A DNA stretch of 64,000 nt from Mustelus asterias (Eukaryota): NCBI RefSeq assembly GCF_964213995.1, contig NC_135808.1, forward strand, positions 39,680,001 to 39,744,000, read 5' to 3'. Below the pieces are notes generated by a model. The model was not told where the DNA came from. It saw only the letters and a program-made list of their open reading frames with translations, and did no database searches. This document shows positions 26,190 through 44,566 of this stretch, one piece after another; within the stretch, counting starts at the first letter, position 1, and every line of letters starts with the position of its first letter. Position numbers and translations under genes: made by a program.

Positions 26190-26687
26190 GTGCTAATTGG
26201 GGACTCTACGGTGAGGGGGTCAGATAGGCGTTTTTGCGGACACAGATGGGACTCTCGGATGGTGGTTTGCCTCCCTGGTGCAGGGGTCCGGGATGTCTCT
26301 GGTCGAGTCCCAGAAATCCTGAAGGGGGAGGGAGAGGAGCCGAAGGTCGTGATGCATATAGGTACTGCTGACATAGGTAGGAAGAGGGAAGGGGTCATGA
26401 AAAGAGAATATAGGGAGTTAGGTAGACAGCTGAGAAAGAGGAATGCAAAGGTAGTAATCTCGGGATTGCTGCCTGTGCCGCGGGAGAGTGAGAACAGGAA
26501 TCGGTGGAGAATGAATGCGTGGCTGAGGGACTGGAGCAAGGGACAAGGATTTGGGTACTTGGATCATTGGGACCTCTTTAGGGGCAGGTGTGACCTGTTT
26601 AAAAAAGACGGGTGGCACTTGAATCCCAGGGGGACCAATATCCTGGCGGGAATGTTGGCTAAGGCTACTGGAGAGACTTTAAACTAG
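26190..26687 (+). CDS. CR1 ORF1 C-terminal SGNH/GDSL esterase domain (partial)
   Basis: IGDS, HIGTADIG and DGWHLN motifs. Confidence 0.85.
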   Translation: MLIGDSTVRGSDRRFCGHRWDSRMVVCLPGAGVRDVSGRVPEILKGEGEEPKVVMHIGTADIGRKREGVMKREYRELGRQLRKRNAKVVISGLLPVPRESENRNRWRMNAWLRDWSKGQGFGYLDHWDLFRGRCDLFKKDGWHLNPRGTNILAGMLAKATGETLN

Positions 26688-26692
26688 AAAGG

Positions 26693-29605
26693 TTGGGGGG
26701 AGGGAATCGAAATGAGGGGACTGAGAGCGAGGAGGTTAGCTCGCAAATAGATAAGGAATGTAAACAGGGTAAGAGGGAGGTTAGACGAGTGATGGAGAAG
26801 GGAAGTGCTCAGGCTGAAGGTCTGAGATGTGTCTATTTTAATGCCAGGAGTGTAGTGAATAAAGTGGATGAGCTTAGAGCGTGGATTGCTGCTTCGAATT
26901 GTGATGTGGTGGCCATTACGGAGACTTGGATGTCTCAGGGACAGGACTGGGTGCTTCAGGTGCCGGGTTTTAGATGTTTCAGGAAGGACAGGGAGGGAGG
27001 CAAGGGAGGGGGGGGAGTGGCACTGTTGATCAGGGATAGTGTCACGGCTGTAGAGAAGGTGGACGCCGTGGAGGGATTGACTACGGAGTCTCTGTGGGTG
27101 GAGGTTAGGAACAGGAAGGGGTCGGTAACGTTGCTGGGTGTTTTCTATAGGCCGCCCAATAGTAACAGAGATGTTGAGGAGCAGATGGGGAAACAGATCC
27201 TGGAGAGATGTAGGAATAACAGAGTTGTCGTGATGGGAGATTTTAATTTCCCAAACATAGATTGGAATATCCCTAGGGCTAGGGGTTTGGATGGAGAGGA
27301 GTTTGTTAGGTGTGTCCAGGAGAGTTTCCTGACACAGTATGTGGATAAGCCTACTAGAGGAGAGGCTGTACTTGATCAGGTGCTGGCTAATGAACCTGGA
27401 CAGGTGGAGGATCTCTCGGTGGGTGAGCATCTTGGGGATAGCGATCATAATTCTACCTCCTTCACGATAGCATTGGAAAGAGATAGGATCAGGCAGGCTA
27501 GGAAAGTGTTTCTCTGGAGTAAAGGGAAATACAGTGTCATCAGGGAGGAAATTAGACGGGTAAATTGGAAGGAGGCATTCTTGGGGAAAAGTACCGAAGG
27601 AAAGTGGAAGATTTTCAAGGAATGTTTGTCTGGAGCTCTGCATGACAACGTTCCGATGAGACAGGGGGGTGTTGGTAGGGTACGGGAACCGTGGTGCACG
27701 AAGGTTGTGATGAACCTGGTGAATAAGAAAAGAGAGGCGTACAGAAGGTTCAGAGAGCTAGGAGGTGTTAAGGATTTAGAGGAGTATACGGGATGTAGGA
27801 AGGAGCTTAAGAAGGAAATTAGGAGAGCGAGAAGGGGTCATGAGAAGGCCTTGGCGGGTAAGATTAAGGAGAATCCCAAGGCTTTCTACAAATATGTCAA
27901 GAGTAAAAGGATGAGATGTGAAGGCATAGGACCCTTAAAAGGTGAAGGGGGAAAAGTTTGTGCGGAACCGTTAGAAATGGCGGAGCTGCTTAATGAATAC
28001 TTTACCTCGGTATTCACGGTGGAAAGGGATCTGGGTGGTTGTACTGCTGGTTTGCGGTGGACAGAAAGGATCGAGCATGTGGACATAAAGAAAGAGGATG
28101 TGTTGGAACTATTGAATGGCATCAAGGTTGGTAAGTCGCCGGGACCGGATGGGATGTACCCCAGGTTACTGTGGGAGGCGAGGGAGGAGATTGCGGAGCC
28201 TTTGGCGATGATCTTTGCATCGTCGATGGAGACTGGTGAGGTTCCGGAGGATTGGAGGATTGCAGATGTGGTCCCTATATTCAAGAAAGGGAACAGGGAC
28301 AGCCCGGGAAATTACCGACCGGTGAGTCTAACCTCAGTGGTTGGTAAGTTGATGGAGAGGATCCTGAGAGACAGGATTTATGATCATCTAGAGAAGTTTA
28401 GTATGATCAAAAGTAGTCAGCACGGCTTTGTCAAGGGCAGGTCGTGCCTTACGAGCCTGGTTGAGTTCTTTGAAAATGTGACCAAACACATTGACGAAGG
28501 AAGAGCGGTGGATGTGGTCTATATGGACTTCAGCAAGGCGTTCGATAAGGTCCCCCATGCAAGACTTCTTGAGAAAGTGAGAGGGCATGGGATCCAAGGG
28601 GCTGTTGCCTTGTGGATCCAGAACTGGCTTGCCTGCAGAAGGCAGAGAGTGGCTGTGGAGGGGTCTTTCTCTGCATGGAGGTCAGTGACCAGTGGAGTGC
28701 CCCAGGGATCTGTTCTGGGACCCTTGCTGTTTGTCATTTTCATAAATGACCTGGATGAGGAAGTGGAGGGATGGGTTGGTAAGTTTGCTGACGACACCAA
28801 GGTAGGTGGTGTTGTGGATAGTTTGGAGGGATGTCAGAAGTTGCAGCGAGACATAGATAGAATGCAAGACTGGGCGGAGAAGTGGCAGATGGACTTCAAC
28901 CCGGATAAGTGTGTGGTGATCCATTTTGGCAGATCCAATGGGATGAAGCAGCAGTATAATATGAAGGGTACCATTCTTAGCAGTGTAGAGGATCAGAAGG
29001 ACCTTGGGGTCCGGGTCCATAGGACTCTTAAATCGGCCTCGCAGGTGGAGGATGCGGTCAAGAAGGCGTACGGCGTACTGGCCTTCATTAATCGAGGGAT
29101 TGAGTTTAGGAGTCGGGAGATAATGCTGCAGCTTTATAGGACCCTGGTTAGACCCCACTTGGAGTACTGCGCGCAGTTCTGGTCACCTCATTACAGGAAA
29201 GATGTTGAAGCCATTGAAAGGGTGCAGAGGAGATTTACAAGGATGTTGCCTGGATTGGGGGGCATGCCTTATGAGGATAGGTTGAGGGAGCTTGGTCTCT
29301 TCTCCCTGGAGAGACGAAGGATGAGAGGTGACCTGATAGAGGTTTACAAGATGTTGAGAGGTCTGGATAGGGTAGACTCTCAGAGGCTATTTCCAAGGGC
29401 TGAAATGGTTGCTACGAGAGGACACAGGTTTAAGGTGCTGGGGGGTAGGTACAGAGGAGATGTCAGGGGTAAGTTTTTCACTCAGAGGGTGGTGGGTGAG
29501 TGGAATCGGCTGACGTCGGTGGTGGTGGAGGCAAACTCGTTGGGGTCTTTTAAGAGACTTCTGGATGAGTACATGGGATTTAATGGGATTGAGGGCTATA
29601 GATAG
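26693..29605 (+). CDS. CR1 ORF2: APE endonuclease + reverse transcriptase
   Basis: YFNARS, ITETW, MGDFN, SDH (APE); YRPVSLTS, DFSKAFDKV, GVPQGSVLGP, FADD (RT); no stops over 970 codons. True start codon uncertain. Confidence 0.95.
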   Translation: MGGGNRNEGTESEEVSSQIDKECKQGKREVRRVMEKGSAQAEGLRCVYFNARSVVNKVDELRAWIAASNCDVVAITETWMSQGQDWVLQVPGFRCFRKDREGGKGGGGVALLIRDSVTAVEKVDAVEGLTTESLWVEVRNRKGSVTLLGVFYRPPNSNRDVEEQMGKQILERCRNNRVVVMGDFNFPNIDWNIPRARGLDGEEFVRCVQESFLTQYVDKPTRGEAVLDQVLANEPGQVEDLSVGEHLGDSDHNSTSFTIALERDRIRQARKVFLWSKGKYSVIREEIRRVNWKEAFLGKSTEGKWKIFKECLSGALHDNVPMRQGGVGRVREPWCTKVVMNLVNKKREAYRRFRELGGVKDLEEYTGCRKELKKEIRRARRGHEKALAGKIKENPKAFYKYVKSKRMRCEGIGPLKGEGGKVCAEPLEMAELLNEYFTSVFTVERDLGGCTAGLRWTERIEHVDIKKEDVLELLNGIKVGKSPGPDGMYPRLLWEAREEIAEPLAMIFASSMETGEVPEDWRIADVVPIFKKGNRDSPGNYRPVSLTSVVGKLMERILRDRIYDHLEKFSMIKSSQHGFVKGRSCLTSLVEFFENVTKHIDEGRAVDVVYMDFSKAFDKVPHARLLEKVRGHGIQGAVALWIQNWLACRRQRVAVEGSFSAWRSVTSGVPQGSVLGPLLFVIFINDLDEEVEGWVGKFADDTKVGGVVDSLEGCQKLQRDIDRMQDWAEKWQMDFNPDKCVVIHFGRSNGMKQQYNMKGTILSSVEDQKDLGVRVHRTLKSASQVEDAVKKAYGVLAFINRGIEFRSREIMLQLYRTLVRPHLEYCAQFWSPHYRKDVEAIERVQRRFTRMLPGLGGMPYEDRLRELGLFSLERRRMRGDLIEVYKMLRGLDRVDSQRLFPRAEMVATRGHRFKVLGGRYRGDVRGKFFTQRVVGEWNRLTSVVVEANSLGSFKRLLDEYMGFNGIEGYR

Positions 29606-31302: not shown

Positions 31303-31464
31303 TGTTATGAACCCCACTGATGTTAGATGCGAGGGTATCCCAAAACTTGAAAGAAAATCCCTTCCTTTAAAGCACCACCCCATGAAGTGTATTTTCATAA
31401 GCCAAATCCAGCAAACAGTTACCACACAATTGATCTTTATTTCAAAAGCCTTCGCCTTGGACTC

Positions 31465-31868: not shown

Positions 31869-32591
31869 CTATGGTTACACAAAGACAGAAAGCACACATG
31901 TCAACTCCATCGTGTTAAACAAAGGTACATGAAAATGGAGACTGTTTAGCATATTTCGAGCTGGGTTCATCGCATTTCTTAATAACAAGAATAGCTGTTC
32001 CTCTTATCTGGTGTGGAGATGCCGGCGTTGGACTGGGGTAAACACAGTAAGAAGTTTAACAACACCAGGTTAAAGTCCAACAGGTTTATTTGGTAGCAAA
32101 AGCCACACAAGCTTTCGGAGCTCTAAGCCCCTTCTTCAGGTGAGTGGGAATTCTGTTCACAAACAGAGCTTATAAAGACACAGACTCAATTTACATGAAT
32201 AATGGTTGGAATGCGAATACTTACAACTAATGAAGTCTTTAAGAAAAGAACACACATTGTTTCGTTTCTTAAAGACTTGATTAGTTGTAAGTATTCGCAT
32301 TCCAACCATTATTCATGTAAATTGAGTCTGTGTCTTTATAAGCTCTGTTTGTGAACAGAATTCCCACTCACCTGAAGAAGGGGCTTAGAGCTCCGAAAGC
32401 TTGTGTGGCTTTTGCTACCAAATAAACCTGTTGGACTTTAACCTGGTGTTGTTAAACCTCTTATCTGGCACAGACATGAAAAACACCGAACTCTGACAAA
32501 AACATGAACTCTGCAGTGTTCTCAACAAAATCACAGAGTTCGGGTCTTAATGCTTAAGTGCGACAAAGTTCATTAAACCATTCCTACTTCA
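31465..32591 (-). repeat. 3' LTR (contains 445-bp PLE insertion)
   Basis: Matches 42170-42850 apart from about a dozen substitutions, (TA)n length and the insertion. Confidence 0.95.
32012..32456. mobile_element. Penelope-derived fold-back insertion with two hammerhead motifs
   Basis: 12-bp TSD CCTCTTATCTGG (32000-11, 32457-68), single copy in the 5' LTR; arms 32055-32246 and 32265-32456 with 1 mismatch; cac-CTGAAGA-a-ggggc ttaga gctcc-GAAA-gc-TT-gtg on each strand. Confidence 0.9.
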
Positions 32592-32603
32592 CTCCCCTCT
32601 TTT
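32592..32603 (-). promoter_or_regulatory. Polypurine tract
   Basis: AAAAGAGGGGAG directly abutting the 3' LTR TG on the minus strand. Confidence 0.85.
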
Positions 32604-32642: not shown

Positions 32643-34050
32643 TCAGAACCACATGTTATCGGGGAATGGGTCTAGCTCCTTAGTCGGGAGGTCTGCCCCC
32701 TCCACCTGTCCACTTGCGACTGTCATAATTCGCGCTGTTACTGTTTTGCAACAGGCGTTCAATAATGCCATACAAACACAACAAGTAATTACAATTACAA
32801 TTAATACAATCAATCCATGCATCAGGTATGAACCCCACAACCCGAACCATTGCCCCAGCCAGCCCGCAGGGTTATAATCATGATATTGGTTCCCTTCTTC
32901 CTGTATTGCTTTTGCTACTTGTTTAATAGGATTTGCTAAGCGAGTTATATTCTCCGAAGGTTCGGGAATATACGTACAGCATTTCGAGCCAACTATGGCA
33001 CATGTTCCACCTTGGGAGGCTAGCACATAATCGAGTGCCAATCAGTTCTGCCACGCCATAGTTCGAATAGCTACGACCTCTGCTGACATTTCAGAGATGG
33101 CCGTGCTCACCTCCTCGAACCCATTTTTAGCCTCATTTGAAATTTTCTCTGGGGTTGAGGCCATCCGTATAGGTTCCTGTGCTGCCTTTGCCAACCCAAA
33201 AAATGGGTCGGCTATCATGAAGAATCGTTCTGTCTCACGAATGGCTCGCTTAGCGCTCAGCAGGTGTATCTCGGGGTGGTCCCGCAAGTCAGTGTAACGG
33301 TGAATATAAGGAACCACATATGCCAAATAACACGATCCTGTCCAATTCCAGGGAAGCCACGGATAGGCATTGTTTCCACAGACAAAATAGGTACCATTAT
33401 ATGCAGTCATCTAGCTTGCATAAGGGGAGGAGAGGCTAACCGGGACGGTGGCTATGGGGCACTGGATTGTGACCTGTATCATGGCCTCAGCGTCATCAGT
33501 GATATCAACCTGCTGTATACAGTAGCTACGGCCAACAGGTATGGTTCCATTTCTTGTCAGGCAGATAACTCCCCTTTGTTTATTCTTCACAACAAAGTAG
33601 GGTGAGGATCCTGATCTGTCGTAGCTGGGCTGGTCATTCTTCTTAAAGGACGATAAAGTGCACCCTCCGCCCCCTAGCCTTGAAACAACATCACTGTTGC
33701 TGATACCCTGCATAGTGGTAACCGATGGGGTTTTAAATGTCAGTTTCCTTGTCCCTTTCTGGGTTCCATTCTGATTTAAAACCCATTCAATTCCTTCTGG
33801 AGCTGATAAAGGGATAGGGAATTCCTCCCTTCCCTCCGTGCATGGGAATGTGTGAACAGACCCAGCACTTGCTCAGATTCGATTGTGATGCATACAGATA
33901 AGACATATACACAAATGTGTTCATACAATAGGCAGAGTCATCATTACAGAGATGATCACTGTACTTCATCCCTAAATCCTCATAATTCAATTTATACTTT
34001 CCCTCTATGGCTAACAGGGCCAGGGTCGTGAGTATCAGCATGAGAAGCAT
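32643..34050 (-). pseudogene. env: Retroviral env (SU+TM), two in-frame stops and one frameshift
   Basis: Signal peptide MLLMLILTTLALLA, CWVC (CXXC), NGTYFVCG..YPWLP.NWTGSC, SAKR cleavage-site remnant, ISD QN*LALDYVLASQGG, CX6CC (CAIVGSKCC), membrane anchor. ORFs 33411-33713, 33042-33410 and 32643-33041 abut in one frame. Confidence 0.92.
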
Positions 34051-34189: not shown

Positions 34190-34660
34190 CACACATTTTT
34201 CCAATTAATTTCAGCATATTCAACTGCGTATATACAGGCACAGATATCTCCACTAATTATAACTTCATACGGCTCATTTCACTTTTGTACAAGCCCTGAT
34301 TTGTTCGGTAATATTTTTACTAAGACATCCCACTGTTGGGACTGTCAGGGAGCATTTCAAGCTCTCTCTGCATCTCTTTTTCTTGATTGTCTTTTACCGA
34401 TTTATGCATCCCTTTTAGTTGGGTGCTTAGTTCCAAAAATATCTCCTGATTTTATCTTTTAGTGGACCTACATCGGTCCCACCTGTTATGATGCTTTTGG
34501 GTAATTGCACCGTCCGTCCTGTCATTAGCTCATAAGGGGTTAATCCGGTTGTTTGGTTTGTAGCAACCCTTAATCTCATTTAGTATGGTGGGCGATACCT
34601 TCATCCACGTTTTTCTTTTCCCCGATGTCTGTATGGCTTTCGCCAGTGCAAAGTATTTTT
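34190..34660 (-). pseudogene. Integrase C-terminal remnant, copy 2
   Basis: ALAKAIQTSGKRKTWMKVSPTIL (core end) and VLVKILPNKSGLVQK*NEPYEVIISGDICACI (GPY/F module). Confidence 0.75.
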
Positions 34661-37200
34661 GCCCAATGTAATTAATTGTGCTATGCTTTAAGTTAATTGA
34701 AGCTAATTTGGCCTCATCAGCTTGGAATTCTGAGTCCAACTTAGAAACTGAGCTGCATTCTTTGAAAGTAGAATGTAAGGTAAACAAACTTTCTCATGGC
34801 CAAATTGTTGATGCAGCTGGAGACTGCTTGTATGTAATAATAATATCTAATTTAGTTCTGCTTTAGAAACAGATGTTTTGTTTTGTTCAATCTCAGGCTG
34901 GTTTTTGGCTGGTCTCTCTCTCTCTCCTTTCTCTAAAATAACCATTCTTTTGAAAGCAATGCTTAAAGAAAGGCATATTTACTTCAGATCAGTCGAGTTT
35001 ATTCTGAAGAAATAAACAGATCCTTCAGTTGGCTTGGTGCGAATCACAGAACACTTTGCACTGGCTGCAGCTGGACATTCTATCAAAAGAAATCGCTTTT
35101 CTCATTTAAATCACATACCATACAACTCCAATCTTTGTATGATGTATTCTTACATTATATCTAATTTGATCATTTGTTTGTCCACATTTGAAAGTGCAAT
35201 GTTTAAGCAGAAATGATTCTTCTATAGATAGATTGTCTCATAAGGTAAACACCAGTGTTTCGTGGTCTCAGATGCCAATTGTATGCTGCCAAATACAGCA
35301 CTTTAAAAACACAGATAACCGAAATGATGCAAGATTTCTGAGTCTGGCTGCAAAGCCCGTCTCCAACTCCTTCTCTCTCCCAAGGAATCCGGCTTTACTT
35401 CCTGTCATGTTAATGTTAATTGTGCAAGCTATTACAAATTATGGCAAAGAATAGTTACATGTTTGGAATAACTAGCCTTTTTTTTTACAGACTTATGTTT
35501 TTAACAATACAAAACATATATTATATCGTGTATCTCAAAACCCTCTTAATTTAATTTTTAAATTAATCTGTTTCCATTTTTAAACTGAGGTCCAGATCAA
35601 AATTCCTTCATTTTCAGAACGATAATAAGCACAATACATATAACAATAACAAGAGTTACTTGATTAGAAATGTTTTGGTTTGCTTCCTAGCTGGCTATAT
35701 TTTAAGCTTTGCAGTGTTCTTAGATTTGGAAAACCTTGAACAATAGATGGCACAATTCCAACGGCAGTATATAGTTTTAACTAGCTACACTATCAGAACT
35801 ATAATCAATGATAGATGATGTAAATGATGTAATTTGTTGCATGTTATCGGAACATCACACAAGTCTTGAATTTCATATCGGTAACTAACTGGCAACACAA
35901 GTTCCAATAATTCATGGTGTTCAATGGTTGGCATCAAATGCAAATTAAAAATACTCAAGGACAACGTCTTTATTTGTATTAACAACTGAGGTTTTAATTG
36001 ATTAATCTCCTGCTGTAAATTGGGATAATCGGAACTACGACTCATTGATTTGATAGACTTTAAACTGACTCATAGACAGTATTTTCACCTCATTCTTTTG
36101 TTCCTGCTTTTCTATTTTTCACAAAATTACTTACTATTTTTTAACTTCTCAACTACACTCTTATAATTTCTACTTCAAGACAAGGAAAGAGCACATGGTC
36201 CTTCCACGGTCTAACTACTTTCTCAACATTAAAACGAACAACAACAAAACATTCACGCAATCATGTTGTCAAACACACAGATACACATGGAAGCTTCCAA
36301 CATTTATTCAGACTTAACATCTTAAACTGGGATGGAAGTAAAACATTTAAGAATACAGACCGTTGATTAACAGTCGCTTTTATTCTGCCGCCTTCCAAGC
36401 TGTAATTCAACTCAAAACAGAAGTAAATTCAAGAAATCTTATCACTTTAATCTTTAACCGTTTGTAACAAATACGTCCCCAGTATTTTCTTATCTCACTT
36501 ATTTCACTGAATTATTTCCCTCATCTCGAATTGTATTGATTTGTCAATTTGGTATTATAGGCGGGCACTCCCTTTTAACCTATCGGTCATTTAATACAGT
36601 TTCATGGTTGATCCATGTAACACATTTTAATTAGAATGCATTCTGGCAGTATAATAATTCCCAGTATGACACATGCACTCCCATTCTACCTTATGTAATT
36701 CCCTTCTCTGTTAATTTTTGACTATATCTTAAAATTACTGCAAGTCTTATAACTCAGGGAAACATAAACAAGTGATTAATCATCATTTCAAATACGCAGG
36801 AATAATTCTTTCTATTTATCTTTTCAACTTCAGTTCTATCAAAAATACATTTTCAAATTTAACAAAAGCCTGATCCAAATAATCCATTTATTTTATCACT
36901 TTTAAATATCCCTACTAAAATAATTATCTTTACACAGGCAAATGCAAGATCGAATCTACTGTGTGCTTAAATGGTTAACTCTCCTTACGACTCTTCAGAT
37001 GTAATCTAATGCTATTATTCCCACATTCCCCAAATCTCTGTGCGATGCATTATCGTAAAATTTACTGGGGAACGTAATTTATTAAACTCGCATTGATCTG
37101 CTATACCCCATTCCACCACATGAGGTTCTCGATCGCAATTACATCTTACATCTCTCTCTCTCTCTTATGTAAGAGAGATTCATAGCCTGCTTGTTTTCTT

Positions 37201-38147
37201 TTAACCTTTTATTCCCTTTTTAACTGTTTTGTTGCGGTAATTGGTGTATTCCTTTAACTGAGTCCAATGCTTCCAGACACCCCTACCTTGCATATCTATG
37301 CAGGCACAGGTGTCTCCACTGATAATGACCTCATAGGGGCCTTTCCATTTGGGGGCAAATCCAGGTTTTCCTGATAGTGTTTTTACCATAACCTTGCTGC
37401 CTGCCGGGGGTATCTCCAGGGTCTGTTCTAGTTTATTGTGCTCATCTATCACTATTTGTTTGTCCCGTACTGTTTTCCGCATATCTTTTAATTGGGAGCT
37501 TAACTCTAATACATATCATCTAATCCTGTCCCGTAATGGACTTACATCTGCATATTTCCGTGATCCATCCACAAACAGGACCAAATCTGGTGCCTCTAGG
37601 GGCACATCTTTTATTCTACTCTCCTCTACCTCTTCGTCTACGTCCCCACATGAGTGGGGAGATCCTTCACCTAACATTCCTTCTGCGGGGTTCATTCCCA
37701 TGTCTCGTACAATGATGATGGACTTAGTGGGTGGGAGAAGCACTGCCTCCCACTTCGCCCTTCTCATGTTTGAGACAGACAGCAATTTTCCTGTGTTCAG
37801 CATTTCCACCAAGGTATGTTTGGTGTGTAAAACAATATTCCCCGTCATTATGATGGGCTCGTTGACCTTTACGCCCCATGCCGCGCAATCTAGTGCGGCT
37901 ATACATCTGGGTAACCCGGTTACTACGGGGCCCTCCGCTGTGGAATAATAACCCACGGGTCGCTGTTTGTCCCCATGGACCTGTGTGACTACTGCCGAAT
38001 AAAATCCCCCTTTGTTATTACAATAGAGATTAAAATCTTTACTAACGTCGGGCATTCCAAGTCCTGGAGCCTTCATTAGTTCTACTTTTAGTTTACTATA
38101 TGCCCTTTCCTGTTCTGATCCCCATTCTATAACTTCTAGAGCGGGTT
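37201..38147 (-). pseudogene. pol: pol remnant: RT connection, RNase H start, integrase C-terminus (copy 1)
   Basis: IEWGSEQERAYSKLKVELMKAPGLGMPD, RPVGYYS, LFVDGS; then VMVKTLSGKPGFAPKWKGPYEVIISGDTCACI. Frame continues across the LINE at ~40575. Confidence 0.85.
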
Positions 38148-38160
38148 TCCCCCCTTTTAC

Positions 38161-40561
38161 GCTTCACGCCTTGGATCCGTGCTGGACCACTTGATCCACC
38201 CTGACCAGTCCTACACGGTCCCGGGCCGTTGCATACATGACAATCTCCACCTGGTCCGGGACCTAATCCATCACACCCAGAGGGCTGGTCTGTCGGGCGC
38301 CTTCTTGTCATTAGATCAGGAGAAGGCGTTCGACAGGGTGGAGCACGAGTATTTACTCGGGACTCTGCGGGCATTCGGGTTCGGGACGCATTTTGTCGCC
38401 CGGATCCGATTACTGTACTCTGCCGCAGAGTGTCTGATTAAGGTTAACGGGTCCCTGACGGCGCCCCTTCGCTTCGGGAGAGGAGTACGGCAGGGCTGCC
38501 CCTTGTCCGGCCAACTGTATTCCGTATGCGTGGAGCCATTCCTGCGCCTCTTGCGGAGGAGGTTGTCAGGTTTGGTCCTGCGCGGACCGGACGTAGGGGT
38601 GGTCCTGTCAGCTTACGCCGACGACGTGCTCCTCATGTTCACGGACCCGGCTGACCTGCGGAGGATGCGAGAATGCCAGGCGGTGTACTCCGCCGCGTCC
38701 TCCGCCAGGATCAACTGGGCCAAGTGCTCCGGACTCCTTGTCGGTCCTTGGGAGACGGACCCCCTTCCGGAGGAGCTCAGGCCTTTCACCTGGAGCAGGA
38801 CCAACCTCCTCTACTTGGGGGCCCATCTCTGCCCAGCCGAGGAATCCTGGCCGGCGAACTGGCGGGAGCTGGAGGCCAAAGTCTCCGCCCGCCTGGGTCG
38901 CTGGACAGGACTGCTCCGAGTGCTGTCCTACGGGGCGCGAGCTCGCGTCATAAACCAGCTGGTCGCCTCCATGCTGTGGTACCGGCTGGTCCCTTTGACC
39001 CCTCCCCCTGGCTTTGTCACCGATATCCAGAGAACCCTCGTGCGGTTCTTCTGGGGCAATCGACTGCACTGGGTCCCTGCTGCGGTCCTGTATCTCCCGC
39101 TTGAGGAGGGCGGACAAGGTCTGGTGTGCCTCCGCACTCAGATAGCGACCTTCCGCCTCCAGGCCCTGCAGAGGTACCTTTACGTTGAGCCCCCTCCACA
39201 GTGGTGTGCCATGGCGACGTATTTCTTCCGCCAGTGGCACGGCCTCAATTATGACGTGCAGCTCCTGCATATCGAACTGGGGCGTGCTTCGACCACCCTG
39301 CAGGAGTTGCCCGTCTTTTACCAGGACCTCCTCACTGTCTGGAACAAGGTCGCCTCGCGACGCAGCTCTCCCCCGTCAGGAGTAGCGGCTCTCGTGCGAG
39401 AGCCGCTGCTCAGGAATCCGCTCCTCCAGCCGTATAACTTCAGGTGGCTGGCGGAGAGGGGGGCTGTGGACGCCGGGGTGACCAGAATCGGGGACGTGCT
39501 CGATGGCGGAGGAGCGGGCTGGATGAGTCCCCGCGTGCTGGCTGAGCGCGCGGGGACGTCCGTCCGGCGCGCGGCCAAAGCCATCCTAGACCTTAGGACG
39601 GTCGTGCTCGGCCCCGAAACTGCACGCAAACTTGAGACGGCACAGGCGTGCGGTGGGATCCCGCCCGAGCGTTCCCCTGTTCGGGCGGAATTCCACATTG
39701 GCCCAAAGCCTCAGCCCCCTCCCCTGGGTGAGGTGCCCCACAGCCTGAGCCGCCTCACGGAAATGCCCTCCGTGCCTTTTTTTACCGCGCGGAGGCGTTT
39801 CCTGTGCGGGCTGCTGCTGCACACCTTCCACTACCGCCTCCTCGCCTGTCGCCCGGATACACCTTGGCGGGCCTTGTTGCCGCCGGGCGGCGGAGGTCCC
39901 CGCTGGAGGTCCCTCTACGGAGGGATCTCCCCCAATTACGTCGGGGACCTGGGGTGGAGGGTGATGCATGCAGCAGTTCCGCACAACCGTAGGATTCACT
40001 GGTTCACGGGCTCCGAAGACTGCCCTTTCTGTGGCCTTGTGGAGTCCGTGGACCATGTCTATGTTGAGTGTCTTAGGCTGCACTCCCTTTATGTTTTCCT
40101 GAAGAATCTTTTATTGATGTTTTGTTTGCACTTCAGTCCCACGCTCCTGATCTACGGACACCCGGTGCGGAGAGGGGAGGGTCGGGATGGCGACCTCCTC
40201 GTGAACCTGCTCCTGGGCCTGGCGAAACGCGCCATTTACCGGTCCAGGCAGCGGGCGATCGAGGGGGCCGTCCATCCTGACTGTCTTCCCCTCTACCGCG
40301 GCTACGTTCGCGGCCAGGTGTCCCTGGAGAGGGAGCATGCGGTGTCCACGGGCGAGGTTGACGCTTTCCGCGCCCGCTGGGCACCGCAGGGGTTGGGGTG
40401 CATTATTGACCCTAATAACCACATTTTAATTTGATGTTTTTAAGTTTCCTTTGCATTTTGATTTCTGTTCGGGCTGTTCCCCCTCCTTTTTGGGGAGCTG
40501 CCCCTTTTACTTTGTCCTGATTTAATTTGAGTTTGTTTACTTGGTTTGACCTAAAAAGAGG
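38161..40561 (+). mobile_element. Tx1/L1-clade LINE, 5'-truncated, inserted in ERV pol
   Basis: 13-bp TSD TCCCCCCTTTTAC (38148-60, 40562-74); CpG-rich open ORF. Confidence 0.92.
38179..40434 (+). CDS. Tx1-type ORF2 (partial): RT + C-terminal zinc knuckle, endonuclease missing
   Basis: SLDQEKAFDRV, GVRQGCPLS, AYADD, CPFC..ESVDH...C; no stops over 751 codons. Confidence 0.9.
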   Translation: MLDHLIHPDQSYTVPGRCIHDNLHLVRDLIHHTQRAGLSGAFLSLDQEKAFDRVEHEYLLGTLRAFGFGTHFVARIRLLYSAAECLIKVNGSLTAPLRFGRGVRQGCPLSGQLYSVCVEPFLRLLRRRLSGLVLRGPDVGVVLSAYADDVLLMFTDPADLRRMRECQAVYSAASSARINWAKCSGLLVGPWETDPLPEELRPFTWSRTNLLYLGAHLCPAEESWPANWRELEAKVSARLGRWTGLLRVLSYGARARVINQLVASMLWYRLVPLTPPPGFVTDIQRTLVRFFWGNRLHWVPAAVLYLPLEEGGQGLVCLRTQIATFRLQALQRYLYVEPPPQWCAMATYFFRQWHGLNYDVQLLHIELGRASTTLQELPVFYQDLLTVWNKVASRRSSPPSGVAALVREPLLRNPLLQPYNFRWLAERGAVDAGVTRIGDVLDGGGAGWMSPRVLAERAGTSVRRAAKAILDLRTVVLGPETARKLETAQACGGIPPERSPVRAEFHIGPKPQPPPLGEVPHSLSRLTEMPSVPFFTARRRFLCGLLLHTFHYRLLACRPDTPWRALLPPGGGGPRWRSLYGGISPNYVGDLGWRVMHAAVPHNRRIHWFTGSEDCPFCGLVESVDHVYVECLRLHSLYVFLKNLLLMFCLHFSPTLLIYGHPVRRGEGRDGDLLVNLLLGLAKRAIYRSRQRAIEGAVHPDCLPLYRGYVRGQVSLEREHAVSTGEVDAFRARWAPQGLGCIIDPNNHILI

Positions 40562-40699
40562 TCCCCCCTTTTACTAGCCTTTTTTTTCACATTCACTGAT
40601 CACTCTTCTTAATTGTTTTATCGTGGTAATTCTGCTCCAATAAGTGGGAGCATTCCCTAATACGCTCTGAATCTCTGTTTTACTCTGGGTGACGGGTTT

Positions 40700-41135
40700 A
40701 TAATTTTGCTTTTGGCCGCGCACCAGTTCCCCTCCGGGTTACTGGTGCTGAATTGTATTCTAGCACTTCCCACTCCTCAGGAGGAGCGGGTGGCCCCTGT
40801 GTGGACTCATTAGGAGGTAGAGGAACAGTTTCCCCTCTCCATTGTTTTTATTCGAAGACTTGGTTTCGTTTCTCCAATTCTCTTATTCTGAATTCTAACT
40901 CTAATCTTTTCTTTATCTTGCTCAATTAGTCCAGCTAACTGATGCATTAACAATACTCCTACTTTCTTTGCCTCGTTTCTCTTTTCTTTATATATCCACG
41001 TTTTCTCTGCTACTCTATGGTCTGAGACGTATCCCAGCCATCCTTTTGCATCCTCTTTATTCATGCTTTTTTCTTTGATAAGTACACGTCAATGAGAGGA
41101 CCTGTAGGTCCCCTCATTACTTCATTATCTGCCAT
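40700..41135 (-). pseudogene. gag N-terminal remnant, copy B
   Basis: MADNEVMRGPTGPLIDVYLSKKKA*IKRMQKDGWD...KKVGVLLMHQLAGLIEQ, homologous to copy A; followed by Pro-rich PPAPPEEW. Confidence 0.65.
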
Positions 41136-41139
41136 TTTG

Positions 41140-41812
41140 CAGACTTCACTACCCCCCTTTGGAGCCCCGCAGTGCCTGACAAAGTGGCCCAGTTTCCTAC
41201 AATTATGGCACGCACCCCTTGGTTTTGCTCCTCCACTGTTTGAACGAACATTTTCCTGTTTTATTTGTAGGTATGGTTTCTCATCTGGTCGATCTCTAAT
41301 TCCAGATGCCCATTCCACTAATTCATCATAAGTCTGGGTATTGAGAACTCCCATTTTAAGGATTTTTTGGTGAGCTGGCGACAGCCCGTCTTTAAATGCT
41401 TGTAAAAAGGCTCTATCTGTTCGGGCAGTTTCGGGTACTCCCCAACATTCTTGTTATATTCTAAAGAGTCGCTCCCCAAATTCAGAGGCTCTTTCACCAC
41501 TTTGTTGTTTAACATTTTAATTGTTTCTTTGACATGAGCCCATTTCTTACCCAAGACTGAAACCTGTTCAATTAATCCGACCAATTGATGAACGAAGAGA
41601 ACTCCAATTTTCTTAGTTTTGTATTTATTTTCCTTTTCCAACCATTTTCGTTGTTGGTCTAGCGGATGGTCTAAATCCCATCCCCCTTTTATCATCTGTT
41701 TTATGAGTCTGTCCCTCTTAATCATAAATTCATTTATTAGGGACCCAGGGGGTCCCCACTGTCTTTGTCCCGCCGTAACACTGATAAGTTTATACTCACC
41801 ACCTGGAGTGAC
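41140..41812 (-). pseudogene. gag: gag remnant, copy A (N-terminus joined by deletion to the NC zinc knuckle)
   Basis: WGPPGSLINEFMIKRDRLIKQMIKGGWD...KKIGVLFVHQLVGLIEQ; CHNCRKLGHFVRHC (CX2CX4HX4C); first coding region after the PBS. Confidence 0.75.
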
Positions 41813-42149: not shown

Positions 42150-42167
42150 ACCCCGGATGAGCCCCCA
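42150..42167 (-). promoter_or_regulatory. Primer binding site, tRNA-Pro
   Basis: TGGGGGCTCATCCGGGGT, 16/18 to the MLV-type PBS-Pro TGGGGGCTCGTCCGGGAT, 2 nt after the LTR CA. Confidence 0.9.
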
Positions 42168-42850: not shown

Positions 42851-44566
42851 GATTCACTGTAGAATCATGCAAGTTTTCAAAACAACAGCTTTTGGCACAA
42901 ACTTGCTTTCATTTCCAGCTGGGCTTGGCTATGATCTGTTTAACCTGCTGCTCATCTCCTGCAGTACAAAGCTAACCCTGCTACTGAAATACCGTTGTTC
43001 ACTTTTGATGTTATTCTATACAAAGAACACCTTACAAAACCATGTTTTTAGCATGTAAGTGTGACATGCATTCTTATGTCTCCACTTTGAACACATCTCA
43101 TCTATTTTTAACACTTGTAATTCTATAACCTATTGTTCTTCATGTCACTGAAGTGAATATGTTGCCCTGCTGTTAAGCTAATTTGCATACCAAAACCCCC
43201 ACCCCACTCAGACAGCTGCACTCTTTTCAATTCCCCCTTTTATCCAATTTTTTAAAACATTACTCTATCCAATACTTCTTTAATCTTCATTTTATTCAAA
43301 TAAATTGACCTGAGGATTTAAACCAGAGTGATGGCAGATGGGAGTCTGCGTAGGGAAACACAAGAGAGGGAGGCAAGTTAGAAATGAGCAACAGAAAAAC
43401 ATAAAAAAGATGTAACGAAGAGGAAGCAAGGGCAAGCAGCAAATAGATCTACAATACAAAATATCATATATAAATTGTTAAAAAGACAAGGCTGAAGGCA
43501 CTGTATCTGAATGCATGGAATATTCACAATAAATAAGGTGGACAATTAACAGCACGAATTGGAATACATGGGTATGATACAATTGCGACTACAGAGACAT
43601 GGCTTCAGGGTGACCAAGGTTAGGAACTACATAGTCAATGTATTCAATGTTTAGGAAGTGTAGCAGGGGATGTTGAAACCCCTGCTTGTTAAGGGGCTTT
43701 TGAAACAAGGTGGACTGGTCTAAAATAGGGATCATAATGTGCAATATATATATATATATACAAAAGGTATCACGATGTGCTTCATACATATGTCATATAA
43801 AGATATTGTTTATTGAACACAATATAATCAATAGAAGTGAATTTTTAACAAATATTGTGATTTTAAAATAGATTTGAATGTCTTGTCAGCTTTGGCCAAG
43901 GGCGGGCTGCCCTGAAAGTATAATGGGGAAAAAGCAGAACCAGTCAGGCCAAATTTTCTGGACCAATGAAGTATAGAACTAAATCAGTGAAAGGCTTTGG
44001 AAGACCATGGAGCTGTGAGGTACTAAGGTAATGAAATGAATGGAAGGATGCAATTGCTAATTAAAATGAATAGGAGCATTCCGCTCCTCACTCTTGGCCT
44101 GATAAGGTATAGCTAGTTAGACAGGATAACTCCCCGACTCCCTTTTAGTTCTCATAGCATGTAGGTAGCAAAGCAAACCTTGAACCTGTCAGACATGCAA
44201 AGGTAAGGTTTCTTAGCAGTGGGGGGAAAGACGTCCAATTCCAGTTAACCATTCGGTGCCTAATTATGCAAAGGTGTAGAATGCTGTTGACCAAGATAAA
44301 TAGTGTGCATTACTGTAAATGGACCACCAGTTTATATGACAGATTGAGCAGGGAATACAAATCTTTGAAAATAGTATATCAGATGTATTCAGGTGATGTA
44401 ATTTTAGAGGGAGATTGGAATCCATCGACATCTCTTTCCCAATGCGTGTTGGTCAAATAAAGAACGTCTTTAACTGCATACTGTCTCTCGCAAGTTTTGC
44501 ATTAACTGAATTTGGCTCAATGCACGATCCCCAGAGCGAATCCCCCAGAAAATTCCCCTAAATATT

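Follow-up and report, generated by a model that had tools for sequence, protein, structure and literature searches.

Architecture of the provirus

How did a single provirus come to hold two gag starts and two integrase ends? This question is raised by a locus in the window, the 64,000-nucleotide stretch of Mustelus asterias contig NC_135808.1 analysed here (positions 39,680,001 to 39,744,000; window numbering is used below), in which one LTR pair encloses, on the minus strand, the two gag starts together with the two integrase ends. The data described below make it very probable that the locus is one member of a class I endogenous retrovirus (ERV) family with many copies. The interior of this family is a mosaic of three resident lineages, probably assembled as reverse transcriptase (RT) switched templates among co-packaged RNAs, and the family was probably copied in trans with Gag and Pol from A-clan relatives.

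The 5′ LTR (42850–42170; TG...CA, A-clan type) and the 3′ LTR (32591–31465) mismatch at 10 of 670 aligned columns, a divergence of 1.5%, and the provirus is flanked by a 5-bp target duplication in which four of five bases are identical (42851–42855 and 31460–31464). Sequence comparison revealed a 445-bp palindromic repeat insertion in the 3′ LTR (32012–32456). From its sequence, we take the primer-binding site (42150–42167) to be of the tRNA-Pro type, and a polypurine tract (32592–32603) adjoins the 3′ LTR. The first gag piece, gagA (41149–41812), comprises an N-terminus, a capsid end and a zinc knuckle, with a ~550-bp capsid deletion near 41520. It meets gagB (40609–41155), which consists of a leader end, a gag N-terminus, an internal deletion and a short capsid piece, at an 8-nt microhomology (41148–41155). 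A third gag is left here as a ~23-nt trace (40587–40609), recognised by comparison with sibling copies, in which ~110 to ~300 nt remain. Further along are an RT piece containing the thumb end, the connection and the first RNase H residues (37552–38160); the integrase C-terminus IN1 with a GPY/F module (37242–37551), to which RNase H is fused through a ~1.3-kb deletion; a further gagB 3′ end (37209–37242); an AT-rich, non-coding spacer (33% GC; 34651–37208); IN2, an integrase core end and C-terminus with its own GPY/F module (34228–34650); and env of class I type (32643–34050).

The first-pass annotation had listed its pieces in this order, and the order stands. It omitted a ~2.4-kb plus-strand LINE (38161–40561) that separates gagB from the RT piece; ~340 bp kept in this interval by sibling copies are missing in the window copy. 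The LINE is a 5′-truncated non-LTR retrotransposon, presumably of the Tx1-like clade, with an ORF2 that matches RVT_1 (E 4e-28) and zf-RVT. It is bounded by a 13-bp target duplication (38148–38160 and 40562–40574) and is private to this locus, being missing in 60 of 60 sibling stretches.

The doubled pieces are homologous. GagA and gagB are 61% identical over 197 nt (blastn E 3e-9), with a local score of 85 against a maximum of 40 among 200 shuffles, and IN1 and IN2 are 64% identical over 253 nt (E 1e-18), with a score of 127.5 against 41 in shuffles. As had been claimed, both pairs are thus far more diverged than the LTRs. Pfam searches of the provirus returned a weak zinc knuckle (E 0.03), RT_RNaseH_2 (E 2e-10), MLVIN_C (E 0.004) and TLV_coat (E 0.001); it contains no internal LTR and no sign of a protease or of the core domains of retroviral RT and integrase. 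The first reading had likewise seen no internal LTR, protease or RT catalytic core. Among solved structures, pol best matches p80-type RT/RNase H chains (E 2e-22). Together with the MLVIN_C, GPY/F and TLV_coat features, these RT matches would place the element among class I (gamma/epsilon-like) ERVs. In the parent lineages A and B, the gag and pro-pol frames abut in phase and gag has a single zf-CCHC, and lineage A env matches TLV_coat at E 4e-17.

The duplicated pieces derive from different lineages

Lineages A, B and B′ all show a plain layout of one gag and one integrase, so that no intact relative with the doubled architecture was found among them. In the gag tree, gagA groups with A and gagB with B/B′, both at 100/100, and in the integrase tree IN1 groups with A and IN2 with B/B′, again both at 100/100. 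Identities agree: gagA is 78–83% identical to A loci; gagB is 78–84% identical to B′/B* loci and 60% to A; IN2 is 84–87% identical to B′/B* versus 65% to A; and the RT piece is 95% identical to a full-pol family member, 84% to A and 72% to B′, values that agree with a tree in assigning it to A-clan pol, sub-lineage A′. The clear homology within each pair could also reflect an old internal duplication of gag and integrase in one ERV lineage followed by divergence, an origin that the first-pass annotation had entertained. However, each paralogue is nearer to a different single-gag, single-integrase lineage than to its partner, and approximately unbiased (AU) tests reject paralogue monophyly with p 1e-29 for integrase and with p 0.045, a marginal value from 206 columns, for gag. 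Internal duplication is ruled out by these trees and tests, and we give it practically no credence. The other proposed origin, recombination between two related lineages, was right as to recombination but too simple, as the donors number three and several steps, including a re-capture of pol, are involved.

The A-type shell comprises the LTRs, leader, gagA, RT piece, IN1 and env, the last also identified by Pfam and by comparison with A, while the 3′ end of the family LTR resembles that of B. Both parents carry the 8 nt of the gag-junction microhomology, A past its zinc knuckle and B′ where its leader ends. The inner cassette has a counterpart in a pol-less B′ element (LTR-gagB-spacer-IN end-env-LTR), present at 4 of 30 B′ loci, to which gagB, the spacer and IN2 all match; the spacer blocks held in common lie at about 36500–36050, 35800–35700 and 35200–35030. 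Between gagB and the spacer lies the lineage C gag piece, C proviruses being 74–84% identical to the insert. The C frame is probably gag: it follows the primer-binding site, contains a weak Gag_p24 match (E 0.008) and lies ahead of regions that match RT/RNase H, integrase and env. A search of the Atlas with the C-derived frame gave no match, nor did one of solved structures with the C capsid. A search of 30 B′ loci and of 30 loci with the insert found no element with B′ LTRs carrying gagB plus the C piece.

The spacer has no match in A or B proviruses and first appears in B′ and C derivatives. A 94-codon frame within it (35785–36069) is open in many late copies but shifts to another frame in early copies; it has no Pfam match, and other frames, with pN/pS of 0.66–0.94, are not clearly above its value of 0.48. 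No Rfam family matched the spacer at gathering level. Sub-threshold Rfam matches were to hairpins only, in the LTR insert and a microsatellite.

The junctions recur at many loci

The gagA/gagB junction motif occurs at 128 places in the genome and the RNase H/integrase deletion junction motif at 102, with no occurrence of either control. The whole gagA-gagB stretch is spanned by 36 of 41 matches, and RT-IN1-spacer-IN2 at 13 places. Among 61 family loci taken in, 20 were callable for target-site duplications (TSDs), and 13 of these carry exact, mutually different TSDs of 4–5 bp. The junctions are therefore not unique to this locus, and because defects are common to copies with different target sites, they predate integration, as the annotation had surmised. 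LTRs, primer-binding site and polypurine tract are kept while coding capacity is lost. Protease, RT core and integrase core do not co-occur at any of 40 junction loci, which points to mobilisation in trans. No RNA data set was among the listed holders of the sequence.

Could the structure instead have arisen once, by nested insertion, ectopic DNA recombination or misassembly, and then been multiplied segmentally? Seven of the 20 callable loci lack an exact TSD, several copies are located on small contigs or belong to identical sets (for example, C142 and C234), and one locus (L022) carries two different LTR types. Duplication of segments or haplotypes thus accounts for some copies, and there have been fewer independent integrations than the counts suggest. 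Yet the 13 different exact TSDs, LTR pairs 0–6.5% apart on many chromosome-scale contigs, the lack of an internal LTR and a contig that bridges the gag junction in a run carrying the label of another organism all argue against a single event, which we regard as highly improbable. Median LTR-pair divergence is 3.2% in the early group (n=4) and 2.4% in the late group (n=22), weak proof of age order.

A proposed stepwise origin by template switching

The family is most readily explained by template switching in a series of steps, the order of which is read from junction sharing. B′ pol would first have been replaced by the non-coding spacer, and the C gag piece then added. The cassette would next have been enclosed by an A-type LTR, leader and env (L225 and L226 resemble this stage). 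A switch from gagA to the B′ leader at the 8-nt microhomology would have yielded pol-less two-gag copies (as in L102, L105 and L109), and the joining of A′ gag-pro-pol to the 3′ half of the cassette would have yielded full-pol copies with two integrase ends (as in L131, L227 and L045-46). The 5′ half of the former and the 3′ half of the latter, with decay by deletion in pol, would give the window form, in which LINE and LTR insertions would have followed integration. The second gagB 3′ end appears to be the scar of A′ pol joining the B′-derived cassette: it is closer to the gagB end of L225 (30 of 34 nt) than to the A integrase end, and a longer form is present in L131. Sibling loci thus document pol-less forms, full-pol forms in which this dead cassette is also present, and a change of primer site, the primer-binding site being of Phe type in lineage A and in early-branching family members.

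The helpers were probably A-clan relatives, judging from the A-type sequences, and full-pol relatives coexist in the genome. Copying mainly by lineage B machinery has some appeal: two B′ blocks were captured, for which B′ RNA must have been co-packaged; B has been active recently, many of its copies having long pol frames and LTR pairs more than 99% alike; and the 3′ LTR end is like that of B. However, the LTR start, the leader, gagA, the pol piece and env are all of A type, all re-captured pol pieces are A′, and the ratio of 5-bp to 4-bp TSDs (11:2 in the family) is unlike that of B (5:8; p 0.04). We therefore consider a B helper distinctly unlikely. The family ratio resembles the 5:1 of A, but three further A pairs read by eye have TSDs of 4, 4 and 5 bp, so TSD length is weak helper evidence and only suggestive of the A clan rather than B.

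Selection and the status of env

Relative to A, env carries a family-wide, in-frame 95-codon gap near its N-terminus. A premature stop near 33042, at the immunosuppressive domain, is common to 36 of 42 copies of the window subgroup, and two further lesions, a frameshift near 33810 and a stop near 33410, are private to the window copy. Env in this subgroup is a passenger. Hence, of the proposal of an env-carrying non-autonomous family, the multi-copy, enzyme-deficient part is borne out and the env-carrying part is nominal for this subgroup.

On the stem of the window subgroup, dN/dS is 0.29 for env, 0.14 for gagA and 0.15 for RT; for gagB and IN2 it is 0.98 (0.26–3.6) and 0.82 (0.50–1.67), both with wide intervals, and a gagB estimate from 90 codons proved unstable. 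Within the subgroup, RT dN/dS is 0.93. Env dN/dS is 0.40 (0.29–0.48) among early copies and 0.68 (0.51–0.94) in the late subgroup. Among pol-less two-gag copies, env dN/dS is 0.40 and gagB and IN2 are near 1.

The low stem values of gagA and env and the constraint on early env would be expected if the two-gag form were partly functional, for example through a translated gagA N-terminus or an env under selection in cis. Passage through full-pol relatives explains these signals equally, and with env stopped in most late copies and the capsid deleted, we find partial function unlikely. As a tentative possibility, the family may have been a long-lived swarm with division of labour, in which pol-less two-gag copies kept a working env, full-pol copies gave Gag-Pol, and the cassette was a selfish cis-element that moved from B′ to the A backbone, rode helper genomes and outlasted LTR turnover and a tRNA-primer switch.

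Relation to known recombinant ERVs

The foreign interior, recurrent breakpoints with distinct TSDs and retained cis signals would place the family with non-autonomous recombinant ERVs of the recKoRV, ETn and D-type kind. RecKoRVs, described as KoRV-PhER recombinants, likewise wrap the ends of one retrovirus around the interior of a second one, break at microhomologies, carry TSDs and have spread although no intact virus is encoded (PMC6112702). In contrast to that description, the shark family has three donors, related class I lineages and a later pol re-capture; its two gag starts and two integrase ends arise because both captured ends have homologues among the genes that were retained. In ETn/MusD and in the ERVK[2-1-LTR] D-type/C-type elements of cattle, as described, the centre of a competent ERV is exchanged for a piece of a different retroelement, gag and env/pol flanks are kept and trans-complementation operates (PMC10924933). 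Both pol-less forms, the B′ element and the two-gag copies, fit this pattern. The shark family, in which trans-complementation is probable, differs from that account in being class I and from a cartilaginous fish, and in that its cassette moved between two helper backbones and occurs also in full-pol copies.

Harlequin, a human multi-donor class I mosaic ascribed to co-packaging and polymerase jumps, shares graded intermediates and post-recombination proliferation, but has other donors and another host, and the shark family does not belong to it by descent; in the shark, junctions, intermediates and the primer-site change are traced (cf. the account in PMC4724089). SERV-K/MER11 is reported to have gained a non-coding block from another ERV by recombination and kept it across a clade (bioRxiv 2022.05.11.490678); that block is shown to be an RNA transport element behind env, whereas any such role of the shark spacer would be hypothetical. 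The elephant shark CmiERVs are also class I (epsilon-like) ERVs of cartilaginous fish, but are reported as few, old and non-mosaic (PMC4422223; PMC4977317), the rate in PMC4422223 being an assumed one. No comparable shark case was found in the literature searched; Repbase or Dfam shark libraries may already hold the internal sequences.

The family extends the recKoRV/ETn/Harlequin pattern to a cartilaginous fish and, within a single genome, retains a series of intermediates more complete than is usual, in which a defective element regained pol and the primer site changed. This series permits sequence-only tests of whether ERV parasites drive helper turnover; an env contribution by pol-less copies, and a role of the captured non-coding block as a cis-acting export or packaging signal, are testable in the same way. 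Single-gene trees mis-classify mosaic loci of this kind.

Provirus structure

The provirus lies on the minus strand from 42850 to 31465, with a primer-binding site directly after the 5′ LTR, a polypurine tract just before the 3′ LTR and flanks that match at 4 of 5 bases. On that strand its interior reads gagA (the first gag N-terminus) with a zinc knuckle, gagB (the second), an RT thumb/connection piece, IN1 (the first integrase C-terminus), an AT-rich spacer of ~2.5 kb, IN2 (the second) and env, the order given in the first-pass annotation. The duplicated pieces are, as had also been claimed, more diverged than the LTRs: likeness is 61% between the gagA and gagB starts (197 nt) and 64% between the IN1 and IN2 ends (253 nt), in each case far exceeding 200 shuffles, while the LTRs differ at 10 of 670 aligned columns.

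The earlier layout omitted two insertions, a 2.4-kb LINE and, inside the 3′ LTR, a palindromic one of 445 bp. The LINE (38161-40561, plus strand; RVT_1 E 4e-28) lies between gagB and RT within a 13-bp target duplication. Because neither it nor the adjacent ~340-bp loss occurs in any of 60 sibling stretches, both are private to this locus. The LINE is 5′-truncated with an uninterrupted frame of 764 codons, and its 3′ end is similar to its own target sequence, a likeness with target-selective elements. The LTR insert (32012-32456), which we take to be Penelope-like, consists of two inverted dispersed-repeat arms forming a 97% palindrome and carries an 11-12 bp duplication. An uninterrupted 980-codon frame at 26663-29605 (plus strand) resembles LINE ORF2, presumably of the CR1 type.

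The paired gag and integrase pieces derive from separate lineages

Plain gag-pro-pol-env lineages of class I ERVs, A, B and B′, reside in the same genome; we take their primer sites to be tRNA-Phe (A) and tRNA-Ser (B and B′). In segment-wise comparisons the leader, gagA, RT piece, IN1 and env of the provirus are 76-84% like A, while gagB and IN2 are 78-84% and 84-87% like B′. Trees of both pairs sort the partners likewise, gagA and IN1 with A and gagB and IN2 with B/B′ (support 100/100 for gag and for integrase). Since each paralogue groups with a separate lineage, the ancient internal duplication that had been offered as an alternative is rejected, with AU tests giving p 0.045 against uniting the family's two gags and 1e-29 for integrase. 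At the gag junction lie 8 bases that occur both where the A zinc knuckle ends and where the B′ leader ends, as a template switch would be predicted to leave.

A third donor contributed as well. Sibling copies carry, 3′ of gagB, a stretch 74-84% like the gag N-terminus of another resident lineage, C, of which ~23 nt are left in the window. The C proviruses possess a distinct LTR and primer site; they match RT/RNase H, integrase and env and give a weak hit to Gag_p24. The proposed recombinant of two lineages thus stands as a mosaic of resident ERVs, with three donors (A, B′ and C) rather than two. Lineage C (L209-L220 and L228) is class I and includes several copies without most of pol; L228 holds the spacer start.

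Pol is missing from four of 30 B′ loci, which have the order B′ LTR-leader-gag-spacer-integrase end-B′ env-LTR, and in one (L232) the spacer|IN junction has the same position as in the family. On this evidence gagB, spacer and IN2 likely arrived together as a single B′-derived cassette, not by two captures. L229-L232 form a separate ETn-like family that keeps most of gag and lacks protease and RT. Three spacer blocks are retained in all four backbones; searches of the spacer found no RNA family and no convincing gene. The spacers of L018-L021 contain a short inverted copy of sequence immediately upstream of env.

Intermediates suggest an order of steps

Several loci preserve other arrangements. 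In L225 and L226 an A-type LTR surrounds gagB, the C piece, spacer, IN2, a B′ env stub and then A env; L102, L105, L109 and others carry gagA|gagB, cassette and env with pol absent. L131, L227 and L045/L046 have gag-pro-pol of A′, a sub-lineage of A, fused to the 3′ half of the cassette. This join retains the last gagB bases, and the same scar is present in the window, where the 34 nt that follow IN1 agree with the gagB end at 30 positions. Together, the intermediates and the scar argue that the window form took its two-gag 5′ half from a pol-less copy and its 3′ half from a full-pol one and afterwards lost sequence by deletion; re-capture of A′ gag-pro-pol by the cassette would have produced the second integrase end. 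We infer the order of these steps from sequence.

Early-branching copies are basal in trees of gagB, IN2 and env. Median LTR-pair divergence is 3.2% in early copies (n = 4) and 2.4% in the late subgroup (n = 22), which includes the window's copy, a slight separation only. Among early copies 15 of 17 have a primer site of the Phe type, as do 15 of 18 copies of A; in 44 of 50 late copies it is of the Pro type, as at 42150-42167 in the window. The types are named for the presumed tRNAs, tRNA-Phe and tRNA-Pro. A single-gag sister subfamily (L043/L044) carries gagA, C piece, protease, RT, deleted integrase, spacer, IN2 and env; every one of the 40 matches scored is 96-100% alike across 170 bp, and it is apparently among the most homogeneous subgroups. 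L022 has differing LTR types at its two ends, and L031 and L120 are tandem proviruses, the second reached through a shared LTR.

The provirus belongs to a multi-copy family

The provirus is a member of a real multi-copy family. Within its genome, 40 of 1707 candidates for the gagA-gagB stretch were scored, and of 41 matches, the window's included, 36 span it in full. For RT-IN1-spacer-IN2 (4041 bases), scoring 38 of 3657 candidates gave at least 13 places that align over 3814 bases or more. Motif searches found the gagA|gagB junction (24 bases) at 128 places and the RNase H|IN1 deletion at 102, against 0 for either reversed control; at most one mismatch was allowed, so further copies escape, and segmental or haplotype duplicates are counted in, since some copies form identical sets on small contigs. 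Among 61 loci examined, 20 have both ends callable: 11 show exact 5-bp and two exact 4-bp target-site duplications (TSDs), all 13 different from each other, and seven show no exact TSD. The recurrence of the junctions with distinct TSDs, proposed earlier as a check on a replicating family, is therefore observed. The gag junction is also bridged by one contig from a sequencing run whose label names another organism. A sawshark protein shows 72% identity across half of the RT piece, as would fit a cartilaginous-fish host.

Coding capacity, helper and env

None of 40 gag-junction loci (10-kb stretches, some shortened by insertions) keeps protease, RT core and integrase core together, and none keeps 60% of mid-capsid; protease and RT core are present in three and the integrase core in four. 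This agrees with the suggestion that the family is non-autonomous. LTR start, leader, all re-captured pol and TSD length favour the A-clan (A and A′) as helper. The ratio of 5-bp to 4-bp TSDs is 11:2 in the family, 5:8 in B (p 0.04) and 5:1 in A, where three more pairs judged by eye have mixed lengths.

On the late-subgroup stem, dN/dS is 0.29 (0.16-0.52) for env, 0.14 (0.04-0.44) for gagA, 0.15 (0.05-0.62) for RT, 0.98 (0.26-3.57) for gagB and 0.82 (0.50-1.67) for IN2, from 5-8 non-independent copies per group, the gagB value being unstable in a shorter window. Inside the subgroup it is 0.93 for RT and 0.68 (0.51-0.94) for env. These values fit a passage of the A-type parts through coding-competent relatives, with the B′ parts carried along dead.

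The description of an env-carrying family holds as to the presence of env, but in 36 of 42 callable late copies (versus one of 10 early copies) the frame stops prematurely within reach of the immunosuppressive domain, and env is a passenger in the window's subgroup. Among early copies env dN/dS is 0.40 (0.29-0.48), which may reflect either a role in cis or recurrent exchange with helper elements. Family-wide, except in L224, env has an in-frame 95-codon gap relative to A (window ~33930), which deletes an N-terminal extension with a basic motif, presumably furin-like; the SU core remains, and env was still under purifying selection after the gap arose.

Relation to known systems

The main proposal of the first-pass annotation, a recombinant non-autonomous ERV family, is upheld. 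In published work, recKoRV arises by recombination at microhomologies, keeps its TSDs and spreads without coding an intact virus (PMC6112702); ETn/MusD, recKoRV/KoRV and cattle C/D types share a swapped centre with gag and env or pol flanks kept, and trans-complementation is described as a shared trait (PMC10924933); Harlequin is a class I mosaic of several donors with intermediates (PMC4724089); and in SERV-K/MER11 a captured non-coding block acts as an RNA transport element (bioRxiv 2022.05.11.490678). The consulted portions of the cartilaginous-fish ERV literature (PMC4422223, PMC4977317, PMC8672886) describe no such family, and no shark case was listed in the main texts searched. In its workings the present family resembles recKoRV, ETn and Harlequin; it has the testable features of the kind and would probably be mobilised in trans, but by descent it belongs to none of them. 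Less usual here are a three-donor cassette that would have moved between helper backbones, the primer switch, the preserved series of intermediates and the pol re-capture, the putative source of the second integrase end.
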